A DNA stretch of 64,000 nucleotides from a virus. Shown one piece after another: positions 1 to 64,000 of this stretch. The DNA lies in the IMG/VR virus record IMGVR_UViG_3300045988_083295, positions 1,409 through 65,408 of that record; one strand, given 5' to 3'. A program made the translations under genes and the position numbers. Under the pieces are notes generated by a model, which was not told the DNA's origin, did no database searches, and saw only the letters and a program-made list of their open reading frames with translations. Numbering within the stretch: position 1 is the stretch's first letter; each line of letters begins with the position of its first letter.

Positions 1-11
1 TCACCGATGGC

Positions 12-3000
12 GTGCTTCGCACAGTCAAAAATGGTGACGATGTGATGAATCGGGTTAATAGGCAAGTTGCCAGAGCTACACGCCCCAATCAGCAGAAGGT
101 TAATCTTGGCTTCAACAACAAGCATAGTCTGTTGGGTGGTGGTAGTCAGGTTCAGCATGAAGGCAAGAAGTTCGATGCAGCCAAAGGTGACTTCGTTGAC
201 CAATATTCAACGGAGGCCGGTAACGTGTATGACAACACGTATGAAGCCGATGCCGAACAGTACAATATCAACCGCAACAAGAGGGATGCGGATACTCTTG
301 ATATGGTGGCCGACATAGAGAGACAGATTCGCGAGCAGGAGGAATTGCTGGAGAAGACAAGGAAGGCCTCTCGCGATGTCAAAGCACCAGACAATCTGTG
401 GGATGCGCTCCGTTACACCATGTCTCATGCTGATGGTTCCCGTCTTGATCAAGAAGATATTGACGAGGAAGCCATTAAGGCCAATATCACAAACCTCCAG
501 AATAGGCGATCGCTCCTGCTACATGGTACTTCAATAGGTCAGAAGGTAGGCAAGTCCATTGGCGACCAACTTGCAGAGGTCAATAAGATGATCAACGCGA
601 ATCTTGATGATTATTACAAGAATCATCCTGACGGTGGTCCTAAAATTCATGACCTTGAATATAACGAGATTTGGTCCATTCCTTCCAATCCTTATCTGGA
701 TGTGGCTAAGAGGTCTCTTGAGGATGCCCAAGAGATGTTCAATGAGGCTGGAAAGTCTGTAGGCGAGAGTGGATTGACGGGGTTCGGTAAAGGAGTAATA
801 AGAGGCTTCGGCAGTAAGTTGTTCGACGCACGTACATGGGACATGGGCTACACCGACCTGAAGGGAGGGCTGTCTCTTGCAGAGGTCTTAAAAAAGGCCG
901 ATGAAGGCAAACCACTTACGGTTGAACAGCAGAAGATGCTCGATGCCAAGGCTACGGAATTGGCATGTGCGGCCTACTTCAGTGGGGCGTTAGGGCGTGG
1001 ATATAAGGCAGGACAAGTGACGGCTGAATCTATTCCCTTCATGCTTGAATTTATGCTCAATCCGCTGTCGGGCACTGGCAGATCAGCGCAAGCCATGCTG
1101 ACGAGATATGCCCTTAAGCGATTCGGTCGTAAGGCCACCATGGAGCTGGGTGAAGATGCGGCCAAGAAGATTCTCTATGGCGATATCAGGCAGCTCACCA
1201 AATCTGTCTTCGACAAGGGTCTTAGCAAGGGTGCAAGAAGGCTTGCAGCGAAGACTCTTGCAGGCAAGGCGAGTGCTCGCATTGCAGGTGATATAACTGG
1301 TGCCGCTGGCATGACGTTCACCACTGGGCAAGGCCGTGTGGCTGCCGATATGCTCAACCGCGCGACTGGCCAAGTGAAGTTTGGCGTAGACACAGACGGC
1401 AAAGTAAAATATACAGGTCACGATGCTCCTGAAGAGAGTAGCCTTCTTACGGCTTACGGTAAGGCGTTCGGTTCGCAATTCAGTGAGAATTACTCGGAGT
1501 TCATGGGTCCCTATATCTCCTATGTTGGAGGCATGTTCGCCAATGGCCTGAAGAAGATAGGAGGAAAGTACTTGTTCGATGGTCTTTCTTCCTTGCGCAA
1601 TCGCTCTGCGGCAGCGGTTATGAAGCTTCCGTTCGCCCCTATGGTGTCTGACTTCATTCGTGAAGCAACCAAGTCTGATTGGGCGAAGGTTATAAAGGGC
1701 ATGCAGAAGCGTGCCCACTGGGACGGCACAGCAGAGGAATATCTTGAGGAGGTTGCTGGCAATATGCTTAATGCCATCCTCGTAGGGGACAACGATTTTT
1801 CAACCGAGGAGGGACGTGGTGTGTTCAACCTGAGCGATAACATTGATACCTTCCTTGGTGTCGGCCTGATGTCGGGTGCGATGTCGGTTTCCTCTGCGGC
1901 TGGCTATCGCACACCGGCCTATCGTGCTCGCAAGATGGTTGAGAATGCTGATGCTAGGGGTGAGAAACTTATGGGCGGCAGTCTGTGGGGGAAGTTCAGA
2001 TCTTCCTTCGATGCGGCTCAGAGCGAGCAGGACAAGCAGGTGATTCTTACTTCATTGCTTCAGAATAGTAGCCTTACAAACGAAGGGCGTAGGGCTGCGC
2101 TGCAATATGCAATCGGTAAACAATTCCAGCAAGCTGTGGCTGACGGCACCTTCCGCGAGATGGAGGAAGATGCTGAGAAGGGCAATGAAGTTGAGCGTGC
2201 TTGCCGTGCCGAATATGCAGAAGGGCAGAATATTGATTCTGTGGAGGAGATGCGTGATGCCAAGACGAGGTATAACGTGTTGCTCCGTGAAGCTCTTGCC
2301 GTTGAACCTAACGCTGAGATATATTCTGACCCTCAGTTTTACGAGCAGTCCAATCCGAATGCTACGCCTGAACAGAAGGCCGCTATGCGTGCTTATGCTG
2401 AAGCCAAGGCTCAATATGAGGGTGTGGCCGACCGAATGAAGACGGACATGGCCGATCAACAGCAGAAGGCCAACGAGCAGGTCGATAGGTTCAAGAATCA
2501 GACTGACGGATTGATCACTAGGGTCAGATTGAGGGGCAGCGATGCGGAGTTCTACGTGACCAGCGGCCACATATCCCTGAACAATGACGGAACGATAAAT
2601 GATGCAGCCACTAGCAGTAACCTTACTATCGTTGATGGTGAGGGAAATGAGCGATTCATCTCACGTGGTGATGTCGTTGATGTGCTCGCGCAGAACACCC
2701 CGGAGGAGACCCTTGAGCAGCTTAACGATATTATCATGAATGAAGCCAAGGCGAAGGCCGATCTCATTGACGGCAAATTGTCCTTCCGTGCTGGCGATAC
2801 GTTTACCATCCTCAACAACGAAGGTCAGGAACAGAAGGTGACCATTGCGCAAGACCCGTCAACGATGGCCATGTCTGCCGTCATTGAGGGTGAGCAAGCC
2901 GCTGTACCTCTTACGGAGGATTCCATGGCCAAGTTGCAGCAGATGTCTGATGCTTATCAGGAGTCTCGATTCGGCAAGTATAGGCAAGAACAGCTGGATG

Positions 3001-6000
3001 CTGTTGCCAATGCTGAGAACGAGGCCACGCAAGAGGGTACTGCTCCTGCTTCACCTACTGCCGCACAAGAGGAGACCGGTGAGCCTACCGAAGCCCGTTC
3101 ATATGGCTATGGAGAGAGCGTAAGCTACGTGGATGGCGAAGGCCATACGCAGGAGGGTGTTGTCCATGGGAAGACTCCTGAAGGAACGTATGAGGTTGAG
3201 TTCGACAATCCTCCTTCAGGCAAGAATGTCGTGGATGAATATACGCAAGAGGAACTTGATGCACTTGTCCAGCCTATTCCTGCCGGACAAACGGAAGAGG
3301 CAATCCCCGAGCCTACCGCATTGGAGCGTGTACCCATCAACGAGGAGACCGGTGAACCTATGTTCGAGAAGGCTGACAGCGAGACTGCCCTTGATGCCCT
3401 CAATGAAGTTACCGGAGGAAACGAAGACAATACTACCGCCATCGTGAGAGCGCAAGTGGAACAGGCGACCAAGGCGCTTGAAGCGTTGAAGAAGAAGAAA
3501 CCCAGCAAGAAAGCTCCTTCGCTGAAGGGTTCTCCACTGGCGATGGTAAAGGCGCAGCAGGAAGCAGAGGCCAACTACAACACTGCGATGGAAGAGTATA
3601 ACGCCCAAGTAGCCGCTGCAGAAGAGAATTTGAACGCTTGGTCGCGTATCAACTCCCTTATGAATGACAGAAAGCGTGCTATCCGTGAGCAGCAGGAGGC
3701 AGAGCGCAAGGCTCGCGAGGAAGAGCTACATGCCGAAGCCGTTGCACGCCTGGAGGAAGACAAGCGCATTGCCGCTGAGAAGGCAGCCGAGCAGGAAGCA
3801 GTAGGAACCCATGCCGTGAACCCGAAGATAAAGGCCAAGTGGGACGGAGCTACCAAGGTTGAGGGCAATCCTAACGCTATCACCCTTGCAGACGGTTCTA
3901 CAATCCGTGGTCACTACGTCCTCACTGAGGCAGGAGCAGCCACCGCCAGCCATGACGTGAACAACGCTTACGAGCCTACTGAAGGTTTCCCTGTCGACGA
4001 GAATGGTGAGAGCGTGAATGACCGCGACTACAAGCGTGACAGAGATGCGCAGCGCATTGTCAGGGATATGGCAGACAGCTACGACGGCAGAGCGTTGCAG
4101 TCTCCGGTCATTGTCAGCAAGGACGGTGTTGTGCTTTCGGGCAATAACCGCACCATGTCGGGCGAGATTGCAGCAAGGCAAGGTACAGACAAGGCGTATG
4201 TGGCCCACTTGCGCGAGTTTGGGGCCATGTTCGGTTTCACTCCCGAGCAGATTGACGGTATGCAGCATCCGCGCGTAGTCTTCGTTCCTGATGAGGAACT
4301 GCCATACGATGCCAATACGTTTGCACGCTTCAATGCCGAACAGCAGAAGAAGCAGAGCAAGCCGGAGCATGCCGTGAAACTTGGCAAGATTGTTCCTGAC
4401 AATGTGTTCACAAGCATTGTGGGTGACATCAGCCGCTTTGATCGCATGTCGGACTACTATGCCGACGGCAAGGCCGCAGCTTCAGCCATTAGCCAGTTGT
4501 TGGATGCTGGTGTTATCAATGAGATGCAGTTGCCGGAGCTTCGCACTGGCAATGCTTTGTCAGCTGCCGGCAAGGAACTTATCGAGAATACGCTTATAGG
4601 CAAGGTCTTCCAGACTTCGCCAGATGCCGTGCGTCAGATAATCAGCACACCGACATTGCGTCAGTCAGTAGTAATGGGCTTGAACGAGATTGCGAATAAC
4701 CGCACGCTCGCCAAGAGCGGCTACGACCTCAGCAAGGAGTTGGCAGCAGCCGTTGACCTTGTGAGCCGTGCCAAGGCAGAGGCTCCGGAAATCTATAAGG
4801 AAGGCATGCCTGTATCGCCTTACGGCAGACAGCAGGGGCTGTTTGATGACGAATACGGAGATAGCCGTGTGACCGATGGCGTGACGTTGCTCCTTGCGGA
4901 CCTGCTTAACAGCGGAAAACCGAGCGACCTGCGCAAGGTTCTCTCAACATACAATCACGAGGCAGCATCCCCTGCCGCAGGTCTGATGGACATGTTCAGC
5001 GGAGACGTGCCCTCTAAGGAAGACGTATTGAATAACGTATTAAATCATTTCAGGAATGCAACACCAAAAGAACAACAAGCAATCGTTGATGCAGCCATTG
5101 CAGAACGAAAGCGTAGAGCCGAAGCAGCAGAGCCAGGAGGAGGAAGCCAAGGAGGTGAACAAACTGAGAATGCTGTTAGGGGCAGTGAAGAAACATCAGC
5201 CGAGAACCTTGGAGGAAATCAGGCAGATGGTATTCAGGAAAAACTAACGGAAGAAGAGGCCGATGCAATGCTTGACAGAATGAAAAGCATCGCTGACCCT
5301 ATGCCTGAGGTTGAACTAACTCCTGAGAACTGGATGAATACCTTTGGGTTGAGTAATAAGATAGACACGCCTATTGGAGAAGTAAAAATGGGAGAATCAC
5401 AATATGCCAAGCTGATGGAGAAGAAACGCTCCAAGGAATTTGGTATGGTTGTTGGTACCATTACAGATCCTGATGTTGTGTTTATAGAGCCAAGTTCAGC
5501 AAAAGACGGACAGGTTACAGAGCGAGCTTATTCTTACGTATTTGTAAAGACATTCAAAAAGGAAGATGAGAACGTAAGATATTACTCTTCTGTAACGGTG
5601 TCTATTGACGGTATGGAAATATCTGTAAGCAGCCATTATATAAACAGCAATAAGGCCAAAAAAAAATTGCTGGAGTTGAACCGCAGATATACAAAAACTG
5701 CATTAATCTCCAACAGCTCTGATGGGCGCTTAGCTGAACAGCAGGATGCTGTGCCGGACCTCCTTCCTACGCAAGAGAATAATGCAGTTTCTGACCTTCC
5801 TTTTCCTAAGGATGGTGTTTCTGTAGGCGAAGATACAGCAAATTCTACAGAGTTGCAAGGAAATGGTAAGGAAAGTTCGCATAAAGGTTTTGTACCCGAT
5901 GAAAAGGTAATAGAAGAAAACGTGCAAAGGTCTGAAAGAGCGTTAGGATTACCAAGTTCTGTTAAACGTGAAAAGACAGAAGTAAAGGTTTCAGACAATG

Positions 6001-9000
6001 GTAAGGTGATGGTCATTAAGACTGACTATTCTGCAAACGGAAGCAAAGCAAGTGTGATAACCTTGTTAGCTGAAAATGATGGACAATTGGATTGGGCAGC
6101 TCAATCATTTGTTGATGGCAAACCTACTTCGGAATTAAAGTATGATTATACGTTGTCGTATGACGATATGATGGAGATGTTTGACGATAATGATGCTATA
6201 CGTCAAGACATTAATCCATTGAAACAGATAGCCCGAAATGCAGGCATAGACATTGATGCCTTACTCAATGGAAAGGAACATGGAACAAAAGTTTCAATAG
6301 AAGCGAGCAGAGAGAAAACTTCTGAAAACGAAGGTGAAAAAACCCTTTCAGCCCAGATTGAAGATGCTTCAGCCGATGTGAACACCGAACCCACCGAGGC
6401 ACAGAAGGAAGCTGGCAACTACAAGAAGGGGCATGTGCATGTCGGTTCGTTCGACATTACCATTGAACAGCCGCAAGGAAGTGTGCGCAAAGGCACGGAT
6501 GCCAATGGCAAGCAATGGGAAAGCAAGATGCACAACACCTATGGATACTTCCGAGGTACAGAAGGCGTGGATGGAGATCACATTGATGTGTTCCTCTCCA
6601 ATGACATTGACGGTTGGAACAGACAAACAGTGTTTGTTGTTGACCAGTACAACCCTGATGGCAGCTTTGACGAGCACAAGGTTATGCTTGGCTTCAATAA
6701 TGCAGAAGAGGCCAAGAGGGATTATCTTGCCAACTATGAGAAGGGCTGGGAAAATGGCCGTAGGATTGACGTGTCCGCTGTGAACCTTGCAGATTTCGAG
6801 AAGTGGATAGCGAGCAGCCACCGCAAGACCAAGCCATTCAGTGAATATTCATCGGTGAAGAAGGAAGGCTCTTCCTCATCAGAAACCAAGCAGTCAAAGT
6901 CCACTGCTGAGGAGAAGCCTTTCAACGCGGTCATTGAGATGCTCCGCAAGAAATTCCCTGATGCCAGCATGGAAGCACTCACGGCTGCTGACAGGCTTTT
7001 GCGTGAACAGGCATTGCCCGGTGAGCGACAGAAGGCCATTGAGGCTGTAGCGAAGGCTCTTGGCCTCAAGGTCGAATGGCGCGACACGATGGAAAAGGAA
7101 AATGGTACGTTCAATCCGAAGACCCGCACCATCACCATTGCACGCGACTCCGAGCATGCCCTTGCCAACACGTTCGGGCATGAGGTGACGCATGCCGTGC
7201 GCAAACTCTCTGAAGCCGACTACAAGAACCTGAAGGATGCCGTAAGAAGACTGTATCCCTCCGAGAAGGAATACAATGAGGCTGTGCAGGCTTATGGCGA
7301 AGTGTACACCGACTTGGACTTTGATGCTCTGGAAGAGGAACTTATTGCCGACAACATTGGTTTCATGATTGGAGGCAGGAACGACATGACGCAGGAACTT
7401 GCCTCACGCATGAACCATCGCGTTCTGTGGGCTATCCATGACGCAATGAATAAGGTGAGGAATGCCCTTGCGAAGGTTCTGCACATTGACTCCAAGAAGA
7501 ACGGACTCTTGGAGGCTATTGATAGTGCCAGAGCTACTATCCGCGAAACGATGGCGAACGCCCAGCGTATTGCGAAGGAGAAGGGACAAGGACTTTCAAA
7601 CGAATCGGATTCCACAAAGCAGTCTCTTCGCACGCAGGACACCACCATACGCGATGCCCTTGTCGAGCGTATGCGCTTGTCGGGCATGGATGTGATCACT
7701 GATGAGACCGGACAGAGGGTGCTGGATATGGCGAATGGAAGGGATACGCGGTTTGAAGCAGCTCGCCACAAGAGCGAAGCAGCACGTAGACGTGACGAAA
7801 TGCTCCGCGCAATAGACCAAGCTAAAGCTTTTATTTCAGGCAAGACTGAGCAGCAGACTCGAGCAGAACGCCGTGAAAGAGAGCGGAAATTCAGAGAAGA
7901 GACCAAAGTTTTGTATGACAGAGTTTTGGCAGGAAATTTTGATTCCGTAACTTTGCAGCTGTTAGACGATTTCATCAACAAAGTAACTCCTAATAATTAT
8001 TATGGAAGACCTCTTTCTAAACGACTTTCAGAGAGAACACTACGAAAAGTGTATGAAAGAGAACGAACGAGTAGCGTCGATGCACTTTTCAGCAGAATAT
8101 CTGAGAGCGCAGTCCCAGCGGATGAACGAACTCGTCCAGAAGCAAAAAGAAGAATTGAGGAGAAAAAGAAAGAACTCCTCAAAGGCTGGGCAATAGCCAC
8201 TGGTAATTGGCACACAGCTGTATCTGATTTTACAGATGACACCAAGCCAATTGGCAGTGGTAAGGATTCTGTTGTATATCACAGCAAGGACGGCAAAAGC
8301 GTAATCAAGGTTTCCAAGGGAAAGGAAAGTGCAAGAAAATTCCGTCCCGACATGGACAATGTTGCTCTCTTCAACACTGTATTCCCTGCAAGCAAATACG
8401 AAATCATAGGCTATGGCGAAATTGACGGCAAGTTCGTTCGCTTTCTTCGTCAGCCAATTGTGGACTTCACCGACAGCACTCCGTTGTCGGTGGAGGAACG
8501 TGTTGCCTATATGGAACGCCTTGGCTTTAGGCCGATGAACGATGAAAAGACTGCTTTCACAAATGGAGAGATAGTTGCTTCGGATATCCAAGGCAATAAT
8601 ATAGTGAAAGATAGAGATGGGAATATCCGTGTGATTGATGCGGATATGCGTTTCCACACTAAAGAGTTTGGTGGAAAATATTCCTATCCAGCAGTTGAGA
8701 CGGATACTGAAACAGCGCCTAACATTCGTGAGCAGCGCGTCTACCATGGTAATGGTGCTAATGATGTCCGTTTCTTCCGCACTGCAAATGGCAAGGCTTA
8801 CGGCTTTACTGTTGGCGGCAAGATTTACATTGACCCAAGGATTGCGACAAGCGAGACCCCGGTGCATGAGTATGCCCATTTGTGGGCAACAGCCTTGAAG
8901 AGTGCGAATGCCAAGGAATGGCAGAACGTGGTAGGGCTGATGAAGGGCACGAAGGTTTGGGATGAGGTGAAGGCTCTTTATCCCGAATTGAAATCAGATG

Positions 9001-12000
9001 ACGAAATCGCTGATGAGGTGCTTGCCACTTATTCAGGCAGACGTGGTGCTGAACGCTTGCGTGAGGAGCAGCGTAGAATTGCCAAGGGAAATGGCAGTGT
9101 GTTCGAGAAGGCTGAAGCTATCAGTGCTTTGGAACGCGTGAAGCAGGCTCTGAAGAGATTCTGGAAGGGCGTTGCTGATTTCCTGCATATTCACTATACG
9201 AGTGCGGAAGAGGTTGCCGACCGCGTGATGAAGGATTTGCTGGATGGGGTTGATCCGCGTAAGTTTGGTGATGGTGGTAAGTCTCTTGATGCCTACAACA
9301 AAATTCGCAAGCATTTCATCGGTGAGCAGGGTGCGGAGCGTGCCGACCATGCTGAAGAGGTGACAACTCGCATTGACAACCTGAACGTTGCTCGCGAGAT
9401 GGAAGATGCCAAGAAAGATGCCAAGGCTATCAAGATGGCTACCGGTTGGGAACGTGGTGCTGACGGCAAGTGGCGGTATGAGATACCCGACTTGAAGTAT
9501 TTTGGCAAGGGTGATGCTGGTTACAAAAAGGCACGTGGAAAGCAACCTTGGAGCAAGGAACTTGATGGCTTGTCAGACAAGATATTTGATGGTGAAGAAC
9601 TTTCGGAATCAGAATACCGACGTTTTGATGAACTTGCACAAAAGGAAGATGATTTCAAGACAGACTATCTGAATAGAGAAAAACCGCACCTTGCTGATTG
9701 GGTGGAGAATGACGAGTTGTTCAAGGCTTATCCCGACTTGAAGCGTGTGAATGTTGTGTTTACTGACCAACTGCCTACAAATGTGGGTGGCAGTTACAAT
9801 GAGCGTGAGCATACTATTGTTGTCAATACGAATTATGTGGGAGACATAGATTCCGTATTGGCTCATGAGGTTCAGCATGCTATTCAGAAGATTGAGGGTT
9901 TTGCGAGGGGCGGTAATCCAGAATCTATACAAGAACGGTTTAAGGCTGCTAAAAAGGAATGGCGTGCGCGTGCTTGGGCTGATGAATTGCGTTACAAGGC
10001 AGATGAAATGGGCGAACATTACAATCAAGCAGCAGTGGAAAAAGCCTTGATTGATGAGTATAAGGAGATGGGCATGGATGATGATGAATGGATGCCTGAC
10101 AAAGAAACTCGCATGAAGGGCTTTAATTACTTTGCAAGGGGTTATGCAGACAGAAGCATGGATGCTGATATTAAGAATTTCAGGTTGGCTGAATCCACTC
10201 GTGCAGACTTTAATCCTTATATGGAATACACTAAACTTGGTGGTGAAGTAGAAAGCCGTAACGTTGAGAAGCGCATGAAAATGTCCCCAGAGGAGCGAAG
10301 AGCAAGTCTTGCCGCAGAGACAGAGGATGTTTCCAGGGAAGACCAGATATTCTTGTTTGGCGAGGACGGTACTAGCATGAAGACCTCATCTGATTTGAAC
10401 GAAATGTTTGGCAATCGTTGGCTTGACGAGCAGACGAACGATGATGGCCGTCATACCACTCAGGTGAAGAGCACCATCAACTCTTACAAGAAGTTTGGGG
10501 ATTGGGTGAAGCGCGACTCCAATGGCCGTGACGTGGACGTGCTTGATGCGAGCAGTGGATTGGGGCTTGGTACGGCATGGATGAGGGACAATGGGTTCAA
10601 GGTTGATGACGTTGAGCCGTTCCCATCAGACAGTCGTGAAGCACCTACGTTCAGCAGCTATGATGAGATAGACAAGAAGTATGACTATATCATCAGCAAT
10701 GCGGTTCTCAATGTGATCCCTGACGATTGGCGTGCCAATGTGCTTCATCAGATGGCCGACAAACTCAAGGATGGCGGCAAGCTGGTGATTAATGTGCGTG
10801 GAGCGGAGGGTATCCGTAAACAAGGCATTGAGGGCAAGACTCGCACCACACTTGATGATGCTTCCGAGATTCTTGTCCATCGTCCTGACGGCAGCATTAA
10901 ATCCTATCAGAAGGGCTTCACGAAGAGCGAACTGAAGGAATGGTGCGAAAAGGAATTGGGCGAAGGTTATTCGGTTGAAATAGCGAATAACAAGAATGCT
11001 GGCGGTAGCTATGACACTGCGGTTGTGGTGACTAAAAATAACGAAAGCGACATTGAGACTATCAATACGAAATTCAATGAGGAATTGCAGCAGCAGATAG
11101 ACGGCACATTGCCAGAAGGTCACATCTATAAGATGGGCAAGCCTGGGCGCATATTGCTCTCTACTGGCGTACCAAATCTTCCCATACAGATGAATGCGAA
11201 AAGACTCCAAGTCAAGGCTACATTATTTGACCATGATTTTGACCTATCGGAAGTGAAAGATTTAGTGAGAGTCTTGCAGCACCCATTGGCAGTTTTTGCC
11301 TATGGTGACAAGTCGAAGGCGCAGAACATCATTGTTCCGCTGCAAAAAGATGGTAAGAACTTTATCGTTGGACTTTCACTCAATCCCACTGTTGGCGGTC
11401 GCAAGTTGGAAATAAACAGCATAAGAAACGTCTTTCCGAAAGACAATTCAGAATGGCTCAATTGGATAAATCAAGACAAGGCCTTGTATATAGACAAAGA
11501 AAAAATCCAAACCCTCATAGACCAACAGCGAACCAATCTCGCTGACGTGGCCTACTTGGATTTGGACTCTGTTGCAAATGTAATGGAAAATTTTGAAAAT
11601 CCAAAGGTTTCTGACGAAAATGTTGCAGATGGCGGCATTATGTTCCGCAATGGTGGGGCTGCGGATGCTGAAAAGCAGTCTCGCAGAGGAACGCCCAATC
11701 TCTACCCAGACCATATTGCACAAGCTATCTATGAGCAGTCTGTGAGCGGTTTCAAGTTTGACTTGGATGAAGCATGGCATGACTCCTTGCTCAGTGTGAA
11801 ACGTCTTCAGGAGGCCATATCCGAGACTCGCGGTGTGCCTATCAGGGACTTCGAGAACGTCTATTGGCATGCCGTTACCCTCAGCAGTGTGAATGCGGCT
11901 GAGATGGAGCAGTTGATGAATCTTCGTATCCAGCCGTTCATTGAGGCGGTTCAGGATATATGCAAGAAGCATGACCTGACTCAGGAAGACATTGAGGTGT

Positions 12001-14966
12001 ATCTCAACTGCAAGCATGGCTTGGAACGTAACGAAGCGATGGCTCGCAAGTTTGCCGAGGCCAAGGCCGAAGAGGAATTTGAGGCTGAACTCAAGAAAGC
12101 CCAGAAGACTGCAACAGCCAATCCTAACGACCAAGCTGCCCAGCTGGCTCTTTTGGATGTGCAGCTGCGCATGAATGACAGAAAGCACGAACTCTATCTC
12201 AAGAACCGCGAGAAGGATTACTCAGGTCTTACGGATATTTTCGACCCGAAGGATAAGGTCACTGGAGACAGACTGGATCTCACCGTTTCGGAATTGGAAG
12301 ATAAGGCAAAGAAGTGTGTTGATGATTTCGAGGCTAAAGTAGGTGTAGCGGAAGTGACCAAGCTGTGGGACAACATTCATGAACTCAACAACTACTCACT
12401 TCGCAAGTCCTATCTCAGTGGTCTTATCAGCAAGAATCAGTACGACAGCGTGAAACAGATGTACCAGTGGTATGTGCCTCTGCGAGGCTTCAACGAAGAG
12501 GTTGCTGGCGATGTGTACACGTATGTGACAAGAGGCGAGACGAGGACTCAGCAGCTTCTGAAGGAGGCCAAGGGACGTACTTCACGTGCTGGAGATATTC
12601 TTGCCACCATGATGAATATGGCCAATTCTGCCGTGAACCAGGGAAACCGAAATCTCATGAAGCAGAAGATCCTCAATCTCGCGCTTAACGCCAAGAGTCC
12701 TCTGTTGTCTGTGAGCAGTACATGGTATCAGACGGATGCCAACGGATTTGACGTACCCATTGAGCCGCCCATCAACGACCAGATGACTCCTTCAGAGCAG
12801 AAGGATGCCATCGAACAGTGGGAGGATACGATGGAGATGCTGGCCAAGCAGGGCAAGGTTCATCGCATGAGCGACAATCTCAGATTGAATCTCCGCACCC
12901 AGAAATGGCAGGCAGATGAGCATTGTATCCGCGTGCAGCGTGGCGGCAAGGAATATTGCGTATGGGTGAATGGTAATCCACGTGCAGCTCAAGCACTCAA
13001 TGACAGACTTGGGAATCAGGTCACCAAACCGTACAAGGCAACTGAGACTATTCTGGACAAGGCCGAAGACCTCTTCACGGATGGCTTCATAAAGATATTC
13101 AGATATATGGCTCAGAGCGTGACAAGCCTTAACCCCGAATTCGTCATCAGCAACTTCCAGCGAGACCTCGCTTCCGCTTCGCTCATCAGCACGGGCAAGT
13201 ATGGTGCAGGTTACACGAAGGACTTCCTTGTCAACGTGAAACGACTTGGCGTGCTCACAGGAACTATGTCTCACAAGAAGGAATACCGCAACGCAGCAGG
13301 TATCTATACGCTCTACAGCAAGTATAAGTCAGGAAACCTTGACAACAACAACGAGATGGAGCGTTACTTTGCCGAATTCATGGCGAACGGAGGCGAGACC
13401 GGCTACACGCAGTCGCTCAGTATTAAGGACTACCAGTCCCGTATCCAATCAGCACTTGGAGACAAAGGCTTTGTGAAATGGTCAAAGAATGCTGGCCATG
13501 CCGTTGCTGATTTCGTTGAGATGGCCAATAGGGGTGTGGAGAACACCTGCCGATTCGCAGCATACATGACAAGCCGTCAACACGGCAAGAGTGTGCTGCA
13601 ATCCATCGTTGATGCGAAGGAAGCGAGTACGAATTTCAATCTCCATGGCGCAGGAGGATTCGGTAACGCTTGGCTGAGGAAGAGCATTATCTTCATCAAT
13701 CCTGCCGTGCAGAGTATTGTGCAGTATTGCCAACTGACGGCCAAGCACCCGAAGGCCATGCTTTCCATGCTTGGCGGTACCATCGGCCTTGGTGCAGCTA
13801 TGGCATTTGCTTGCGCCAGTATGGTCGCACCGGGTGGCGGTGATCCTGACAGTAATTACTGGGATCTGTCTGATTACGTCCGACACAATTACATTGTGAT
13901 ACCTAGCGGTAATGGGAATTGGACACGTATTGCACTCCCTCCCGAAATCAGAGCCGTGTATGGCCTTGGCGTCATCGCGATGGAGGCCGCGATGGGACGG
14001 ATGAATCATAGCAGCATTCCTGCGGCTATCGGTGATCAGCTTATGCAGTTCTCCCCCGTTGCCTTCCTTGATCCACGCAACTTCTTCAACAGAAGCGACA
14101 GCGATCACCCTGTCGGCAAGACCTTGTTCAGGGCATTTATACCTACGCTCCTTTCACCTCTTGCAGATGCATACGTATTTGACGAGGATTTCATGGGGAG
14201 ACAGATTACGGGCAAGAATGACTTCAATGATGACAAGCCAGAGTTTCAGCGGACAAGCTATGATACCCTTCCGCAGTTGGTATCCTTCTCAAGGTGGCTC
14301 AACAATATCAGTGGCGGCAACGACTACAAGAAGGGCTGGATCAATGTCAATCCATCGTCAGCAGGTTATGTGGCTTCCCAATATATCGGTGGTCCCTTGC
14401 AGTTCTTCACGAAGATAGGCAAGACGGTTGCCATGATTACCTATGAGGACTTGCGCGATATGCGCAATGTGCCGTTCCTGAGCCGATTCATGACATCCAC
14501 AGACAATGACTATGGCCGCAATCAGGTAAGCAATGCAGAATTCAAGTATTGGTCTGCCATTGCAGATGATGTCAGAACTCAAATCAGAGGATTCGAGAAG
14601 GAGATTGAATCTGGCGATACAAAGAATCTTGATGACTACAAGAAACTCGTCAGCAGTAAGGAATACGAGATGTATCAGATGATTGACTATATGGATTGGC
14701 TGAAGGATATCAGGGAACTCAACCAGAAACGCAAGGAAGAGACTACGCAGGATGCCCAGAAGCAGGTTACGCTTGAGATTTATGAGGTTCGTCGCAAGAT
14801 GGCCGAATGTCTCAACAAGGCTGAAGAGATGGGTGTTTATCTGGAGATGGGTCAACTCAACCTTGAATTGGCCAATGCCAAGACCACGGAAGAGAGGGCT
14901 GCCATACAAGCCAAGATCAACGAGAAACGCAAAGAGAATCTAAAGAAAATCGGAGCGATTGAATGA
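12..14966 (+). CDS. Giant polyvalent (multi-effector) virion-type protein, >=4,984 aa, 5' end possibly outside window
   Basis: Single uninterrupted ORF. There is no in-frame stop between nt 3 and the GTG at 12, so the true start may lie upstream. It contains ParB-like, InPase-like, three HExxH, kinase-like, SAM-MTase, MuF_C-like and PLxRFG-like motifs (sub-features below). TGA stop at 14964-14966 is followed by a terminator. Confidence 0.9.
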   Translation: MLRTVKNGDDVMNRVNRQVARATRPNQQKVNLGFNNKHSLLGGGSQVQHEGKKFDAAKGDFVDQYSTEAGNVYDNTYEADAEQYNINRNKRDADTLDMVADIERQIREQEELLEKTRKASRDVKAPDNLWDALRYTMSHADGSRLDQEDIDEEAIKANITNLQNRRSLLLHGTSIGQKVGKSIGDQLAEVNKMINANLDDYYKNHPDGGPKIHDLEYNEIWSIPSNPYLDVAKRSLEDAQEMFNEAGKSVGESGLTGFGKGVIRGFGSKLFDARTWDMGYTDLKGGLSLAEVLKKADEGKPLTVEQQKMLDAKATELACAAYFSGALGRGYKAGQVTAESIPFMLEFMLNPLSGTGRSAQAMLTRYALKRFGRKATMELGEDAAKKILYGDIRQLTKSVFDKGLSKGARRLAAKTLAGKASARIAGDITGAAGMTFTTGQGRVAADMLNRATGQVKFGVDTDGKVKYTGHDAPEESSLLTAYGKAFGSQFSENYSEFMGPYISYVGGMFANGLKKIGGKYLFDGLSSLRNRSAAAVMKLPFAPMVSDFIREATKSDWAKVIKGMQKRAHWDGTAEEYLEEVAGNMLNAILVGDNDFSTEEGRGVFNLSDNIDTFLGVGLMSGAMSVSSAAGYRTPAYRARKMVENADARGEKLMGGSLWGKFRSSFDAAQSEQDKQVILTSLLQNSSLTNEGRRAALQYAIGKQFQQAVADGTFREMEEDAEKGNEVERACRAEYAEGQNIDSVEEMRDAKTRYNVLLREALAVEPNAEIYSDPQFYEQSNPNATPEQKAAMRAYAEAKAQYEGVADRMKTDMADQQQKANEQVDRFKNQTDGLITRVRLRGSDAEFYVTSGHISLNNDGTINDAATSSNLTIVDGEGNERFISRGDVVDVLAQNTPEETLEQLNDIIMNEAKAKADLIDGKLSFRAGDTFTILNNEGQEQKVTIAQDPSTMAMSAVIEGEQAAVPLTEDSMAKLQQMSDAYQESRFGKYRQEQLDAVANAENEATQEGTAPASPTAAQEETGEPTEARSYGYGESVSYVDGEGHTQEGVVHGKTPEGTYEVEFDNPPSGKNVVDEYTQEELDALVQPIPAGQTEEAIPEPTALERVPINEETGEPMFEKADSETALDALNEVTGGNEDNTTAIVRAQVEQATKALEALKKKKPSKKAPSLKGSPLAMVKAQQEAEANYNTAMEEYNAQVAAAEENLNAWSRINSLMNDRKRAIREQQEAERKAREEELHAEAVARLEEDKRIAAEKAAEQEAVGTHAVNPKIKAKWDGATKVEGNPNAITLADGSTIRGHYVLTEAGAATASHDVNNAYEPTEGFPVDENGESVNDRDYKRDRDAQRIVRDMADSYDGRALQSPVIVSKDGVVLSGNNRTMSGEIAARQGTDKAYVAHLREFGAMFGFTPEQIDGMQHPRVVFVPDEELPYDANTFARFNAEQQKKQSKPEHAVKLGKIVPDNVFTSIVGDISRFDRMSDYYADGKAAASAISQLLDAGVINEMQLPELRTGNALSAAGKELIENTLIGKVFQTSPDAVRQIISTPTLRQSVVMGLNEIANNRTLAKSGYDLSKELAAAVDLVSRAKAEAPEIYKEGMPVSPYGRQQGLFDDEYGDSRVTDGVTLLLADLLNSGKPSDLRKVLSTYNHEAASPAAGLMDMFSGDVPSKEDVLNNVLNHFRNATPKEQQAIVDAAIAERKRRAEAAEPGGGSQGGEQTENAVRGSEETSAENLGGNQADGIQEKLTEEEADAMLDRMKSIADPMPEVELTPENWMNTFGLSNKIDTPIGEVKMGESQYAKLMEKKRSKEFGMVVGTITDPDVVFIEPSSAKDGQVTERAYSYVFVKTFKKEDENVRYYSSVTVSIDGMEISVSSHYINSNKAKKKLLELNRRYTKTALISNSSDGRLAEQQDAVPDLLPTQENNAVSDLPFPKDGVSVGEDTANSTELQGNGKESSHKGFVPDEKVIEENVQRSERALGLPSSVKREKTEVKVSDNGKVMVIKTDYSANGSKASVITLLAENDGQLDWAAQSFVDGKPTSELKYDYTLSYDDMMEMFDDNDAIRQDINPLKQIARNAGIDIDALLNGKEHGTKVSIEASREKTSENEGEKTLSAQIEDASADVNTEPTEAQKEAGNYKKGHVHVGSFDITIEQPQGSVRKGTDANGKQWESKMHNTYGYFRGTEGVDGDHIDVFLSNDIDGWNRQTVFVVDQYNPDGSFDEHKVMLGFNNAEEAKRDYLANYEKGWENGRRIDVSAVNLADFEKWIASSHRKTKPFSEYSSVKKEGSSSSETKQSKSTAEEKPFNAVIEMLRKKFPDASMEALTAADRLLREQALPGERQKAIEAVAKALGLKVEWRDTMEKENGTFNPKTRTITIARDSEHALANTFGHEVTHAVRKLSEADYKNLKDAVRRLYPSEKEYNEAVQAYGEVYTDLDFDALEEELIADNIGFMIGGRNDMTQELASRMNHRVLWAIHDAMNKVRNALAKVLHIDSKKNGLLEAIDSARATIRETMANAQRIAKEKGQGLSNESDSTKQSLRTQDTTIRDALVERMRLSGMDVITDETGQRVLDMANGRDTRFEAARHKSEAARRRDEMLRAIDQAKAFISGKTEQQTRAERRERERKFREETKVLYDRVLAGNFDSVTLQLLDDFINKVTPNNYYGRPLSKRLSERTLRKVYERERTSSVDALFSRISESAVPADERTRPEAKRRIEEKKKELLKGWAIATGNWHTAVSDFTDDTKPIGSGKDSVVYHSKDGKSVIKVSKGKESARKFRPDMDNVALFNTVFPASKYEIIGYGEIDGKFVRFLRQPIVDFTDSTPLSVEERVAYMERLGFRPMNDEKTAFTNGEIVASDIQGNNIVKDRDGNIRVIDADMRFHTKEFGGKYSYPAVETDTETAPNIREQRVYHGNGANDVRFFRTANGKAYGFTVGGKIYIDPRIATSETPVHEYAHLWATALKSANAKEWQNVVGLMKGTKVWDEVKALYPELKSDDEIADEVLATYSGRRGAERLREEQRRIAKGNGSVFEKAEAISALERVKQALKRFWKGVADFLHIHYTSAEEVADRVMKDLLDGVDPRKFGDGGKSLDAYNKIRKHFIGEQGAERADHAEEVTTRIDNLNVAREMEDAKKDAKAIKMATGWERGADGKWRYEIPDLKYFGKGDAGYKKARGKQPWSKELDGLSDKIFDGEELSESEYRRFDELAQKEDDFKTDYLNREKPHLADWVENDELFKAYPDLKRVNVVFTDQLPTNVGGSYNEREHTIVVNTNYVGDIDSVLAHEVQHAIQKIEGFARGGNPESIQERFKAAKKEWRARAWADELRYKADEMGEHYNQAAVEKALIDEYKEMGMDDDEWMPDKETRMKGFNYFARGYADRSMDADIKNFRLAESTRADFNPYMEYTKLGGEVESRNVEKRMKMSPEERRASLAAETEDVSREDQIFLFGEDGTSMKTSSDLNEMFGNRWLDEQTNDDGRHTTQVKSTINSYKKFGDWVKRDSNGRDVDVLDASSGLGLGTAWMRDNGFKVDDVEPFPSDSREAPTFSSYDEIDKKYDYIISNAVLNVIPDDWRANVLHQMADKLKDGGKLVINVRGAEGIRKQGIEGKTRTTLDDASEILVHRPDGSIKSYQKGFTKSELKEWCEKELGEGYSVEIANNKNAGGSYDTAVVVTKNNESDIETINTKFNEELQQQIDGTLPEGHIYKMGKPGRILLSTGVPNLPIQMNAKRLQVKATLFDHDFDLSEVKDLVRVLQHPLAVFAYGDKSKAQNIIVPLQKDGKNFIVGLSLNPTVGGRKLEINSIRNVFPKDNSEWLNWINQDKALYIDKEKIQTLIDQQRTNLADVAYLDLDSVANVMENFENPKVSDENVADGGIMFRNGGAADAEKQSRRGTPNLYPDHIAQAIYEQSVSGFKFDLDEAWHDSLLSVKRLQEAISETRGVPIRDFENVYWHAVTLSSVNAAEMEQLMNLRIQPFIEAVQDICKKHDLTQEDIEVYLNCKHGLERNEAMARKFAEAKAEEEFEAELKKAQKTATANPNDQAAQLALLDVQLRMNDRKHELYLKNREKDYSGLTDIFDPKDKVTGDRLDLTVSELEDKAKKCVDDFEAKVGVAEVTKLWDNIHELNNYSLRKSYLSGLISKNQYDSVKQMYQWYVPLRGFNEEVAGDVYTYVTRGETRTQQLLKEAKGRTSRAGDILATMMNMANSAVNQGNRNLMKQKILNLALNAKSPLLSVSSTWYQTDANGFDVPIEPPINDQMTPSEQKDAIEQWEDTMEMLAKQGKVHRMSDNLRLNLRTQKWQADEHCIRVQRGGKEYCVWVNGNPRAAQALNDRLGNQVTKPYKATETILDKAEDLFTDGFIKIFRYMAQSVTSLNPEFVISNFQRDLASASLISTGKYGAGYTKDFLVNVKRLGVLTGTMSHKKEYRNAAGIYTLYSKYKSGNLDNNNEMERYFAEFMANGGETGYTQSLSIKDYQSRIQSALGDKGFVKWSKNAGHAVADFVEMANRGVENTCRFAAYMTSRQHGKSVLQSIVDAKEASTNFNLHGAGGFGNAWLRKSIIFINPAVQSIVQYCQLTAKHPKAMLSMLGGTIGLGAAMAFACASMVAPGGGDPDSNYWDLSDYVRHNYIVIPSGNGNWTRIALPPEIRAVYGLGVIAMEAAMGRMNHSSIPAAIGDQLMQFSPVAFLDPRNFFNRSDSDHPVGKTLFRAFIPTLLSPLADAYVFDEDFMGRQITGKNDFNDDKPEFQRTSYDTLPQLVSFSRWLNNISGGNDYKKGWINVNPSSAGYVASQYIGGPLQFFTKIGKTVAMITYEDLRDMRNVPFLSRFMTSTDNDYGRNQVSNAEFKYWSAIADDVRTQIRGFEKEIESGDTKNLDDYKKLVSSKEYEMYQMIDYMDWLKDIRELNQKRKEETTQDAQKQVTLEIYEVRRKMAECLNKAEEMGVYLEMGQLNLELANAKTTEERAAIQAKINEKRKENLKKIGAIE
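3876..4215 (+). other. ParB/sulfiredoxin-like nuclease-fold module of the giant protein
   Basis: VIVSKDGVVLSGNNRTMSGEIA (nt 4107-4172) fits the ParB N-terminal DGxxxxxGxxR signature. Domain borders are approximate. Confidence 0.6.
6411..6809 (+). other. InPase-like (polyvalent-protein inorganic pyrophosphatase-like) module
   Basis: AGNYKKGHVHVGSFDITIEQPQGSVRKG...YGYFRGTEGVDGDHIDVFLS resembles, from memory, the InPase block described for polyvalent proteins. Confidence 0.55.
7056..7440 (+). other. Zincin metallopeptidase module 1 (MPTase-PolyVal/ArdC-like)
   Basis: HEVTH at nt 7179-7193, preceded by TRTITIARDSEHALANTFG, typical of polyvalent-protein zincins. Confidence 0.6.
8253..8648 (+). 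other. Protein-kinase-like fold module
   Basis: Glycine-rich loop plus Lys (GSGKDSVVYHSKDGKSVIKVSKG), then a catalytic-loop/DFG-like segment IQGNNIVKDRDGNIRVIDAD. Confidence 0.5.
8739..8900 (+). other. Zincin metallopeptidase module 2
   Basis: HEYAH at nt 8865-8879, preceded by GGKIYIDPRIATSETPV. Confidence 0.5.
9750..9915 (+). other. Zincin metallopeptidase module 3
   Basis: HEVQH at nt 9864-9878 in the context EREHTIVVNTNYVGDIDSVLAHEVQHAIQKIEGFARGGN. Confidence 0.5.
10440..11030 (+). other. Class I SAM-dependent methyltransferase module
   Basis: Motif I VLDASSGLGLG (nt 10539-10571), an acidic residue after beta-2 (FKVDDVEP), and a later YDYIISNAVLNVIP...GGKLVINV block. Confidence 0.6.
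11109..11510 (+). other. MuF_C-like / large-polyvalent-protein-associated module
   Basis: LPEGHIYKMGKPGRILLSTGVPNLPIQMNAKRL...HPLAVFAYGD...NFIVGLSLNP...EINSIRNVFPKD matches the conserved MuF C-terminal-type block as I remember it. Confidence 0.5.
12471..12494 (+). other. PLxRFG-like motif (YVPLRGFN)
   Basis: Motif seen in the translated sequence. Assignment to the PLxRFG domain family is from memory only. Confidence 0.35.
13690..13850 (+). other. Hydrophobic/transmembrane-like helices in the C-terminal part of the giant protein
   Basis: IIFINPAVQSIVQYCQL and LSMLGGTIGLGAAMAFACASMVAPGGG are long apolar, Gly/Ala-rich stretches. Confidence 0.5.
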
Positions 14967-14974
14967 CAAAGAAG

Positions 14975-15006
14975 AATCCCCTGCCTCATGGTGGGGGATT
15001 TTTTTG
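14975..15006 (+). terminator. Rho-independent terminator after the giant gene
   Basis: Stem AATCCCC (14975-14981) / GGGGATT (14994-15000), followed by TTTTT. Confidence 0.8.
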
Positions 15007-15012
15007 TTGCGT

Positions 15013-15058
15013 GAGGACGGAAATACGGCAACGCTATGGTTATCTACGCCTAACTTCG
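15013..15058 (+). promoter_or_regulatory. Late promoter copy: GAGGACGGAAATACG box plus -7-like TAACTTCG
   Basis: The 15-mer is identical to 19956-19970. GACGGAAATAC starts exactly 35 nt upstream of the -7-like box, as in the other two copies. Confidence 0.55.
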
Positions 15059-15062
15059 CGAC

Positions 15063-15647
15063 ATGGACAATAAAAACGAAGATACGAGCATATTGCGTAA
15101 TATCGCTTATGTGATGCAGATTATACTCTTCATAATCTGCATTGCTTACACATATCGCAACTATCGCCTTCATTCGGGTACGGATGATGTATCCTTACGT
15201 GTGGATACCCTATATGTTACGCGAACGGAACGAGTGGGTTCGCCAACAGTACGCGATAGTGTTGTGCTCAGATTCAAAACAATCCCTGTCGTGAACGAAG
15301 CGATGCGTCCAGACACAGCCATGACCGATACAGCCTCCGATGTTGTTGGAATAGAGGCTTCACGTGATAGCGTGAATATTCCCATCGTTCAGCACGTCTA
15401 TGCAGATACGCTGCACAATGGAATATCGTATCAGGCTTGGGTGAGCGGATACGATGCGAGTCTTGACTCCATCTGTATCAATTCGCGCACACAGACCCTT
15501 ACCAGGGAAATGCGCATACGCTCTCCCACTGATGAAGCTCATTCGAAGACAAGGAGATTCGGATTGGGCATTGTTGGCGGATGGGGAATAACACAGCATG
15601 GTTTCTCGCCATTCTTGGGGGTTGGCGTGACATATAGACTATATTGA
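15063..15647 (+). CDS. Hypothetical membrane-anchored protein
   Basis: ORF track. N-terminal hydrophobic helix IILFIICIAYTY. An alternative in-frame ATG at 15106 fits the promoter spacing better. Confidence 0.6.
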   Translation: MDNKNEDTSILRNIAYVMQIILFIICIAYTYRNYRLHSGTDDVSLRVDTLYVTRTERVGSPTVRDSVVLRFKTIPVVNEAMRPDTAMTDTASDVVGIEASRDSVNIPIVQHVYADTLHNGISYQAWVSGYDASLDSICINSRTQTLTREMRIRSPTDEAHSKTRRFGLGIVGGWGITQHGFSPFLGVGVTYRLY

Positions 15648-15649
15648 CA

Positions 15650-16147: not shown

Positions 16148-16156
16148 GGATACAAG

Positions 16157-17387: not shown

Positions 17388-17394
17388 TTAGACT

Positions 17395-63096: not shown

Positions 63097-63864
63097 ATGA
63101 TTGGAGCAATTGTAGGTGCGGCAACTGGGTTGGCCAGTTCTATATATGGAGGCATTGCCTCGGCTAGAGCCGCGAGAAAGCAAAAAAATGAGATAGCACG
63201 ACAGAAGGAGGCTAATAAGGCTTGGTATGAGAGGCGCTACAATGAGGATGCCACGCAGAGGAGCGATGCCCAGCGACTCCTTACGAAGACGCGTGAGGCG
63301 TATGAGAAGCGCAATCGTGAGGCTGCGGCAACTCAGGCCGTTGTGGGTGGTAGCGATGAATCTGTTGCGGCTACCAGAGAAGCCAATGCGAAGGGACTCG
63401 CTGATACGGCAAGCCAAATCAATGCGGCAAGCGAGGCTCGCAAGGATTCAGTTGAAGAATCCTATCGCAACCAAGACCAGCAGTTGGCCGGGCAGTTATC
63501 TGCCCTTGAGGCTCAGCGTTCGGCTAACATTGCCAATGCCACAAGTCAAGCCGTTGGTGCGGCTGCTCAGCTGGGTAGCGCAATCGATGGCTCGGTTGAA
63601 GACAGAAGAGCCAAGAAGGAAGAAGCGGCCAAGGCGGCACAGGCACAAGCTGCGGCTGAAGCCAAGACTTCGGGTGCGGCTCTCAACGCTCAGGTGGTGC
63701 AACAACAGCAACCGCAACAGTGGCTCTCTCCATTGGAGCCTACTCAGGCGGCCGAACCTATCAAGCTGAATGAATTTCATGGGGATAATAAGAAGAAACC
63801 TGACAACTGGATGGATATGTCTATCTTCGATAATGCTAAGAGAGCGCAGAATGCGACTTTTTAA
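63097..63864 (+). CDS. Gly-zipper N-terminal helix plus coiled-coil protein (internal virion/ejection-protein candidate)
   Basis: MIGAIVGAATGLASSIYGGIASA, followed by a long charged A/Q/E-rich region. First gene after the late promoter. Confidence 0.6.
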   Translation: MIGAIVGAATGLASSIYGGIASARAARKQKNEIARQKEANKAWYERRYNEDATQRSDAQRLLTKTREAYEKRNREAAATQAVVGGSDESVAATREANAKGLADTASQINAASEARKDSVEESYRNQDQQLAGQLSALEAQRSANIANATSQAVGAAAQLGSAIDGSVEDRRAKKEEAAKAAQAQAAAEAKTSGAALNAQVVQQQQPQQWLSPLEPTQAAEPIKLNEFHGDNKKKPDNWMDMSIFDNAKRAQNATF

Positions 63865-63867: not shown

Positions 63868-64000
63868 ATGGGAAGTACATTTGACTATATAACGGGGAAG
63901 GACAAGAAGCAGACCCCTACGGCACAGCCAGCGCAACAGCCTACTCAGGTGGCACAGCCAGCGCAACAGCCTACTCAGGTGGCACAGCCAGCGCAACAGC
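63868..64000 (+). CDS. 5' part of an ORF with PAQQPTQVAQ repeats, continuing beyond the window
   Basis: ATG at 63868. Hand translation MGSTFDYITGKDKKQTPTAQPAQQPTQVAQPAQQPTQVAQPAQQ, still open at the window end. Confidence 0.5.
   Translation, partial: MGSTFDYITGKDKKQTPTAQPAQQPTQVAQPAQQPTQVAQPAQQ
63922..64000 (+). repeat. Perfect 30-bp tandem repeat (2.6 copies visible, truncated by the window end)
   Basis: GCACAGCCAGCGCAACAGCCTACTCAGGTG repeats at 63922, 63952 and 63982, in frame. Confidence 0.9.

Follow-up and report, generated by a model that had tools for sequence, protein, structure and literature searches.

The 64,000-nt stretch analysed here (IMG/VR record IMGVR_UViG_3300045988_083295, positions 1,409 to 65,408; below, the window) carries at its left end a giant gene (3..14966, + strand), whose product belongs to the phage-type polyvalent proteins that Iyer et al. 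(2017) described, with one more architecture of that class. An earlier note, made from the sequence alone, had pointed to the polyvalent-protein architecture described by Iyer, Aravind and co-workers, and profile searches found the signature domains of the class. The protein consists of a conserved N-terminal module (N-module) of ~1,300 amino acids (aa) that includes LPD14, a variable cargo of ~2,500 aa and a conserved C-terminal module (C-module) of ~1,100 aa. By analogy with homologues, we consider it probable (about 0.8) that the protein is packaged and ejected, with the constant ends serving delivery and the enzymes of the middle acting in the host. Observed here are an intact open reading frame (ORF), the identities of the domains, a phage context, constant ends around a variable middle, and homology of the C-module to proteins proven to be in virions. 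Earlier work has already described the class, the domains it contains, the giant size of its members and their occurrence in virions, and the window adds a member and not new knowledge of the class. The window presents a clean and intact case, from a phage of gut Bacteroidales, of a protein class that is very large and still little understood and that fills between a fifth and a quarter of many podovirus genomes of ~60 kb. In addition, a 99%-identical relative makes the layout plain, with end modules that stay constant and an enzymatic middle that can be swapped; such a layout would allow the ejection and counter-defence functions to be separated.

On the + strand, one frame stays open from base 3 of the window until its TGA (14964-14966), a length of 4,987 sense codons, which bears out the earlier reading of a single 14,955-nt frame open to the left. 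The probability of such a run by chance is ~(61/64)^4987, or ~e^-239. This frame reaches the left edge without a stop, so the GTG at position 12 is only the earliest start-like codon in the window and not the true start of the gene. The true start, which the earlier note had proposed to seek further left, was located by means of two relatives. L032 (ENA ERZ28614601 scaffold_322, 103.8 kb) is an independent metagenome assembly from another sample and is identical to the window at 99.8% of nucleotides over 1-9484 and at 99.2% over 11671-24966. It encodes an intact orthologue of 5,052 aa (P0225), whose start lies 108 codons to the left of window base 3; an assembly accident had been raised as a concern, and the same intact ORF in L032 argues against it. 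In the second relative, L002, the protein (P0001) starts 122 codons upstream of base 3, and related N-terminal sequence was also found in P0003. From these two starts, the full-length protein is predicted to have about 5,095-5,109 aa. In L032, the match to window base 64000 sits 1,448 nt upstream of the match to base 1; the window thus represents a phage genome of ~65.4 kb in circularly permuted form, cut inside the giant gene, and the first ~108-122 codons of the gene lie beyond the left edge and continue from the right end of the window. At ~15.3 kb, the giant gene takes up ~23% of this genome. The protein is very poor in cysteine (12 Cys), and no internal repeats were found when it was compared with itself by BLASTP. 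Only protein-level searches gave relatives: megablast of the giant gene and the late region against 50,697 phage records returned no match, and a back-translated peptide scan with the N-terminal 400 aa returned one distant IMG/VR contig and nothing in GTDB genomes.

We scanned the giant protein against Pfam in ten overlapping 650-aa tiles, and ten families were found at or above the gathering cut-off or at E<=1e-5, together with weaker ones; all lie on the + strand. The N-module (690..1922) encloses LPD14 (1659-1901; E 1e-15) and has 27 invariant columns across 12 homologues. An AF2 model of the N-terminal 800 aa, built from 12 sequences, was poor (pLDDT 45). Further along, a ddrB-ParB domain (3891-4271; PF18763, E 3e-7, 31.0 bits against a gathering cut-off of 27.6) contains the ParB/Srx-like motif noticed earlier at 4107-4172. 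A PBECR2-like predicted RNase (5361-5660) is weak, with PF18810 at E 2.7e-4 and 21.6 bits, short of the cut-off of 27.1; the segment also matches phrog_13543 (E 3e-7). The InPase-like block of the earlier note is the Pfam family InPase (type I pyrophosphatase-like; 6396-6809; PF18823, E 8e-54), with the acidic motif DGDHID. This module matches PDB 9b41_L (E 1.4e-24), the C-terminal domain of the Pa193 portal, and it was the only match when the whole giant protein was compared with the PDB by sequence. In the Pa193 portal (gp19, 765 aa; PDB 9b41 chain L), the InPase-type domain occupies residues 637-763 at the C-terminus; the published portal model spans residues 94-528 only, leaving this capsid-interior domain unmodelled, and the portion of that publication available to us does not discuss it. 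The kinase-like block proved to be a Kinase-PolyVal protein kinase (8160-8657; PF18762, E 3e-33) with a GSGKDS loop, DIQGNN and IDAD, and it is followed by LPD23 (9360-9494; PF18838, E 4e-12). The motif VLDASSGLGLG at 10539, taken earlier as motif I of an S-adenosylmethionine (SAM)-dependent methyltransferase, belongs to a class I enzyme of the Methyltransf_23 type (10521-10808; E 1.5e-9). No DPPY-like motif is visible in its translation, and the segment had no relative in the PDB by sequence. Furthermore, the MuF_C-like block is Pfam MuF_C, a PBECR-type predicted RNase (11229-11510; PF18819, E 7e-19). Judging from the translation, DGDHID, GSGKDS/DIQGNN/IDAD, VLDASSGLGLG and SGNNR (in ParB) are the putative active sites. 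Pfam gave no match to helicase families (E<=0.1, any tile), lysozyme or transglycosylase families in the giant protein.

Three HExxH motifs occur in the protein, against 0.09 expected from its composition, and all three had been taken for zincin cores. For two of them profile evidence was found. Zincin (metallopeptidase, MPTase) 1 (6954..7217, with HEVTH at 7179-7193) matches the metalloprotease family phrog_87 (E 2.5e-5) and, weakly, DUF6782 and SprT-like. Zincin 3 (9711..10010, with HEVQH at 9864-9878) matches SprT-like over 9711-9887 (E 1.3e-5, 25.4 bits against a cut-off of 25.6), phrog_87 (E 5.4e-6) and phrog_13543 (E 3.7e-13). The putative zincin 2 (8685..9062, with HEYAH at 8865-8879) stands at the level of its motif, and its segment had no profile match in Pfam or PHROGs. 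This segment of ~125 aa was found again in 41 of the 141 relatives surveyed below, and HEYAH is preceded by a beta-strand, as are the HExxH motifs of zincins 1 and 3. By their sequences, the three zincins are not recent duplicates, because the protein has no self-repeats and zincins 1 and 3 (pairwise E 5e-5) are the sole pair that reaches such similarity. The earlier list of modules was thus essentially right; it had missed LPD14, LPD23 and LPD38 (and the weak PBECR2), and it was over-confident on one zincin.

The all-alpha C-module (11671..14963, + strand; phrog_14770, E 5e-93) contains LPD38 (13848-14474; Pfam E 4e-29). An alignment of 44 sequences has 45 invariant columns in this module, YVPLRG among them, so that the YVPLRGF motif singled out earlier at 12471 (12471-12491) is an invariant motif of a conserved module. 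The apolar region noticed at 13.7-13.85 kb holds a strongly hydrophobic 19-mer at 13770-13826, the only one in the giant protein. An AF2 model of the C-module was almost wholly helical (pLDDT 71, pTM 0.64). The C-module profile found no relative in the PDB by sequence, and Foldseek with the model found nothing in the PDB at E<=0.001; therefore, no known fold can be assigned to it. The model had 84 matches in BFVD (TM 0.45-0.65), nearly always to the final piece of a protein of very large size; Ralstonia phage Alix and E. coli phage PTXU04 are among the phages concerned. The BFVD entry A0A482MT02_2 is probably the PTXU04 polyvalent protein, to judge from two 1,099-aa BFVD pieces against its 2,198 aa. 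By tblastn, the C-module was found in 327 sequenced phage genomes. Among these are Bacteroides phages BS-TP4 (gp3), BKO1-TP3 and BF1-TP2, Ralstonia GP4-like phages, Vibrio phages, Burkholderia phage BcepIL02 (gp70), and 933W with many Shiga toxin (Stx) phages. In a profile search, the module ended at the protein C-terminus or within ~180 aa of it in all 150 of the 150 best representatives. The window protein shares this C-terminal placement with the LPD38-terminal giant virion or ejection proteins Bcep22 gp75, JC1 gp69, phi24B gp47 and PTXU04 gp25. By analogy with these, we propose that the C-module may be the part responsible for virion incorporation and ejection.

The size of the family was assessed with a C-module profile search of cluster representatives at 50% identity, which gave 14,643 representatives at E<=1e-3 and 6,271 at E<=1e-30. 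Lengths and segments were then surveyed in the 141 best new cluster representatives carrying the C-module. Their median length was 4,563 aa, with 56 of at least 5,000 aa, 14 of at least 6,000 aa and a maximum of 6,927 aa. The size of the window protein is therefore typical for the family; to the earlier note it had looked exceptional, which the 5,391-aa homologue in BS-TP4 and the 4,500-4,700-aa proteins of Burkholderia phages also contradict. Segments corresponding to the N-module (79) and the InPase (92) were the most widely shared among the 141, followed by MuF_C (54), zincin 2 (41), ParB (29), the PBECR2-like segment (24), the kinase (14), the methyltransferase (8) and zincin 1 (3). The module combination, which had also seemed exceptional, recurs as well. 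P0225, essentially the window's own protein, has 16 of the 17 test segments outside the C-module, and P0209 (5,293 aa) has 15 of the 17 at 30-65% identity. Comparison with L032 places the variation inside the middle: window 11037-11670, which holds MuF_C, is replaced in L032 by unrelated sequence with no nucleotide match, and 9485-10235 is strongly diverged (the diverged and replaced segments lie at 19807-20485 and 21287-21863 of L032). The junction at 11671, where the C-module starts, is also a fragment boundary in a host chromosomal island described below. In BS-TP4 gp3 and in L001, an IMG/VR relative, a Strawberry-notch-type helicase stands where the window has the kinase, zincins and methyltransferase.

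Polyvalent proteins usually exceed 2,000 aa and combine 2-15 biochemically unrelated effector domains; InPase, DdrB-ParB, PBECR2 and LPD38 are restricted to phage-type polyvalent proteins, the first two and LPD38 being described as linked to the virion, and the kinase family found here comes mostly from (pro)phages of Bacteroidetes and Verrucomicrobia (PMC5512222). The window protein has the size and the multiple effectors (4,987 codons within the window) and the hallmarks of these Iyer-type proteins, namely zincins, LPDs and phage-restricted domains, PBECR2 being sub-threshold. Its gene adjoins packaging and late genes and not a type IV secretion system (T4SS), with terL and the portal gene downstream and an integrase and a repressor in the same genome. 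No categorical difference from the Iyer-type proteins was found.

The nearest isolate is Bacteroides phage BS-TP4, a temperate gut phage (Gut Microbes 2025, PMC12694917), whose gp3 (PQ571277, 5,391 aa) is likewise a giant single ORF with its neighbours arranged alike: it is preceded by a gene of ~390 aa, homologous to the one upstream of the window's giant gene, and packaging genes adjoin. The two giant proteins are 25% identical in the N-module, 65% in the InPase and 30% in the C-module with LPD38, the remainder being unaligned. The portals of the two phages are 61% identical, and the capsid proteins are homologous. In contrast to the window protein, gp3 carries a helicase (AAA_34/Helicase_C_4) and has no kinase, Methyltransf_23, MuF_C or LPD23 (Pfam E<=0.001). 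It is annotated only as hypothetical, and the gene is not discussed in the portion of its paper available to us (PMC12694917).

A homologous C-terminal LPD38 module is also present in the Bcep22-like podoviruses. BcepIL02 gp70 has 4,667 aa (GenBank record) and is annotated as "DarB-like", and JC1 gp69 (4,515 aa, 22% of the genome) was found to be virion-associated by mass spectrometry, with 51 unique peptides (2022; PMC9144972). As in the window, the giant gene occupies ~22% of a temperate podovirus genome of ~60 kb and is preceded by smaller genes, the products of which are virion-associated in the Bcep22-like phages. These phages differ from the window phage in their Proteobacteria hosts, in other cargo modules and in an identity of 23% confined to the C-module; furthermore, their gene ends the morphogenesis block, before the lysis genes, whereas that of the window lies upstream of terL. 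In phi24B, gp47 (with LPD5, LPD1, LPD38 and MuF-C) is abundant in virions and absent from the cryo-electron microscopy density, and it has been proposed to be an encapsidated ejection protein that forms a periplasm-spanning conduit (bioRxiv 10.64898/2026.04.10.717836). The C-module is 24-25% identical to phi24B gp47 and 933W L0134 over ~690 aa (E ~1e-28), and MuF_C is shared; the latter proteins differ in being about half as long (2,811 aa), in having fewer enzyme modules and in other N-terminal LPDs.

T7 gp14/gp15/gp16 and P22 gp7/gp20/gp16 are capsid-internal ejection proteins, encoded by adjacent small, medium and large genes, that leave through the portal. To these the window protein, which is 4-8 times larger and carries enzyme cargo, is a functional analogue only, with no sequence or fold similarity in PDB searches. 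P1, a myovirus, offers the concept of a head-packaged protein injected with the DNA, in DarB/DdrB, and the ddrB-type ParB domain is common to DdrB and the window protein. Zincin-linked processing has been proposed for DdrB (PMC5512222). The window protein differs from P1 DarB in having no DarB-type helicase (no Pfam match) and a small methyltransferase of the Methyltransf_23 type, and no DarA/Hdf partners were identified for it. The label "DarB-like" suits the protein poorly, since it lacks that helicase. Among the assignments tried and rejected were an orthologue of P1 DarB (no helicase family in any tile and a methyltransferase without a visible DPPY-like motif) and a MuF/SPP1 gp7 minor head protein (MuF_C only, no Phage_Mu_F match). 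A tape measure protein (no such family in Pfam or PHROGs in the giant protein or its neighbours) and a polyvalent protein of a conjugative element (no T4SS context) were rejected as well.

In the reading that we favour, the protein would be produced alongside the neighbouring virion genes, packaged inside the capsid of a short-tailed virion of the P22-portal type, and expelled via portal and tail before the DNA or along with it. Encapsidation and ejection would fall to the C-module and perhaps also to the N-module, and the C-module might add to a conduit across the envelope. The targets of the central enzymes would be host nucleic acids, nucleotides and proteins during the first minutes of infection, so that defences are blunted and the cell is taken over, and the zincins may cleave the polyprotein into working units. 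Interspersed MPTases have been proposed as autoprocessing devices (PMC5512222). The earlier idea that the protein may double as an internal or ejection protein agrees with what has been proposed for homologues and fits the current literature, because C-module homologues (phi24B gp47, JC1 gp69) were found in virions and are proposed ejection proteins. For the window phage itself, packaging, ejection, conduit formation, autoprocessing and the enzyme targets are all inferred.

Several points weigh against this reading. Packaging in the window phage is argued from homologues, and the virion morphology is predicted. No peptidoglycan hydrolase domain was found by Pfam, though many podovirus ejection proteins have one, and a chain of 5,100 aa must unfold or be cleaved to pass the portal channel. 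A conduit role of the C-module is a conjecture, because no structural relative of the module has been solved and only one of its helices is even moderately hydrophobic. The support for HEYAH and for PBECR2 is weak, and the methyltransferase is known by class only. In addition, the gene is split in L002 and cut in another relative, L005 (both described below), so that relatives do not all keep an intact gene, at least as assembled.

If the protein were instead a purely accessory anti-defence cargo, a "DarB-like antirestriction" factor, it would travel in the head yet be dispensable for assembly and DNA delivery, and would matter only on hosts that have restriction or another defence. Homologues carry that very annotation, polyvalent proteins have been interpreted as counter-defence effectors (PMC5512222), and the middle is highly variable between near-identical phages, as arms-race genes would be; for the middle alone, such a role is possible. 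As an account of the whole protein we find it unlikely. The helicase that defines P1 DarB is absent here (no family match) and present in BS-TP4 gp3 and L001, and the C-module of ~1,100 aa, unlike arms-race domains, is strongly conserved between phyla and always stands at the end of the protein. Moreover, a CRISPRi-ART screen on a laboratory host showed that the PTXU04 polyvalent protein, probably the homologue matched in BFVD, is needed for plating (PMC11879866), which argues for a core rather than an accessory function, and the phi24B authors favour an ejection role. A late cytoplasmic polyprotein, never packaged and cleaved into enzymes for takeover or superinfection exclusion, would suit a gene at the junction of the replication/early block and the packaging genes; the virion evidence comes from homologues, and the enzymes could in principle act late. 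We regard this as very unlikely, given that three homologous proteins were detected in purified virions, that the neighbourhood is structural (portal-adjacent in BS-TP4, near virion-associated proteins in BcepIL02) and that InPase, ddrB-ParB and LPD38 are described as virion-linked.

Damaged copies in relatives raise the question of whether the giant ORF is an artefact, that is, a chimeric or mis-assembled join or a decaying pseudogene. L002, which is 93% identical to the window, has at 5344-5365 (window 2168-2175) an 8-bp deletion (AGATGCTG) that frameshifts the giant gene, and gene callers therefore give an 847-aa N-terminal protein and a separate downstream ORF; this split may be real or a sequencing error. 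In L005 (96% identical), the contig begins with a DDE transposase gene (39-1493), directly followed by the final 1,056 codons of the giant gene, as a result of either an insertion sequence (IS) in the gene or an assembly break. Arrays of fragments of the giant gene in a host chromosome point the same way. Set against these are the 4,987 stop-free codons, the intact ORF in the independent L032 at 99.8%/99.2% nucleotide identity, the 5,391-aa homologue in a sequenced isolate (BS-TP4), many intact relatives of 5,000-6,900 aa, and the conserved N- and C-modules at both ends, as in the relatives; an artefact has almost no credibility on this evidence.

The fragment arrays were found in L003 and in L004/L006, from different samples, which cover one and the same chromosomal locus in a Bacteroidales bacterium that has not been cultured; over a GH84-type gene, this locus and the metagenome-assembled genome (MAG) HGM05072 are 100% identical. 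The island is bordered by a glycoside hydrolase (GH20/GH84) gene on one side and by genes for a major facilitator superfamily (MFS) protein, RNase Y and ZapA on the other, and it extends over ~7,200-22,100 in L006 (= L004) and ~9,200-17,377 in L003. Its ~14 kb consist solely of same-strand fragments of the giant gene, 90-98% identical to the window in nucleotides, which match window 6312-7659, 8764-10437 and 11572-13108 and include internal duplicates. The fragments encode PBECR1, MuF_C, InPase, LPD23 and zincin modules and a C5 DNA methylase, the last being absent from the window. Every ORF of the island terminates in a truncated C-module. The two samples differ in what the island contains, and neither integrase nor tRNA nor structural genes were found in it. 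The island may be prophage debris or a cassette reservoir. Near-identical phages differ by replacement of whole modules at recurrent junctions, such as 11671. On this basis one might picture the central cargo as cassettes switched by recombination, with the island as a library of orphan cassettes that could exchange effector modules with phages, whether resident or infecting, comparable to the orphan toxin modules of Rhs and contact-dependent inhibition (CDI) systems or to the silent cassettes of pilins. We hold this to be rather unlikely; if true, phages would have a novel means of diversifying the anti-defence arsenal that they inject. The host might instead retain the fragments because it profits from them itself.

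The genes around the giant gene are those of a phage. A terminator-like hairpin with a T-run (14984-15006, + strand) lies 18 nt past the stop codon, and between the giant gene and terL there are a DUF6808 gene and three tandem small paralogues (167, 202 and 209 aa; phrog_19255), together at 15063-17387. No small terminase was recognised in this interval. The placement of the giant gene upstream of terL with a terminator behind it, as described in the earlier note, is confirmed by terL at 17395-19515, which is followed by a capsid-protein homologue (20897-22420), a P22-type portal (22990-25002; Pfam P22_portal, E 6e-40), and then tail fibre and endolysin genes. On the other strand are an integrase (39630-40838) and a CI-like repressor (42009-42794), and genes for RecT, an exonuclease, replication, a DNA methylase and a dUTPase lead back round to the giant gene. 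The note had seen no tape-measure or sheath gene, and no PHROG match to tape measure, sheath or tube families was obtained among the late genes scanned, several of which lack annotation, so that the morphology is a prediction. Conjugation and T4SS families had no match in the window genes scanned. The window phage is temperate and probably short-tailed. Relatives of the giant protein are labelled Alistipes, Muribaculaceae, Phocaeicola and Parabacteroides; together with BS-TP4 as the nearest isolate, these labels support the earlier description of a temperate Bacteroidota phage, which also agrees with the integrase, repressor, terL and portal.

Upstream of the giant gene, by circular continuity, lie the 5' end of the directly preceding gene (63869..64000, + strand; 322-397 aa in relatives) and, two genes upstream, a 255-aa gene (63097..63864, + strand). 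The order in L032 and L002 is 230/255 aa, 322/397 aa, giant gene, and this small-medium-giant series precedes or accompanies the packaging genes, as in Burkholderia phages. The 255-aa gene had no family match; it is a candidate small partner by likeness to the virion-associated gp67/gp68 encoded before JC1 gp69. In L002, the gene preceding the giant gene overlaps the giant start by 4 nt and is homologous to BS-TP4 gp2 (E 4e-13). The 5' end of this gene in the window contains a 30-nt tandem repeat, GGCACAGCCAGCGCAACAGCCTACTCAGGT (63928-64000), which encodes a Q/P/A-rich repeat, and the L002 homologue has a different Q-rich stretch in place of the GGCACAGCCAGCGCAACAGCCTACTCAGGT repeat. In L002, furthermore, the reverse complement of window 15712-14936 (the DUF6808 gene and the last 30 nt of the giant gene) stands within positions 1-861, and a spacer of ~85 nt of unrelated sequence connects it to what precedes the giant gene (63033 onward). 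This junction would fit an inversion of the ~17-kb giant-gene segment or a chimeric assembly; no inverted repeat was found in the window at the two junction sites.

Elsewhere in the window, a family 2 glycosyltransferase gene (29475-30410) lies among the tail genes, and two phage-borne tRNA genes (Met-CAT and Arg-CCT) were found at 45707-45909, just upstream of the RecT and exonuclease genes. Accessory genes encode a DNA methyltransferase (phrog_56; 55189-56139), a GNAT acetyltransferase (57408-57761), an SPFH/Band 7 protein (58484-59266) and a crAss001_48-related protein (PF21825; 62395-62787).

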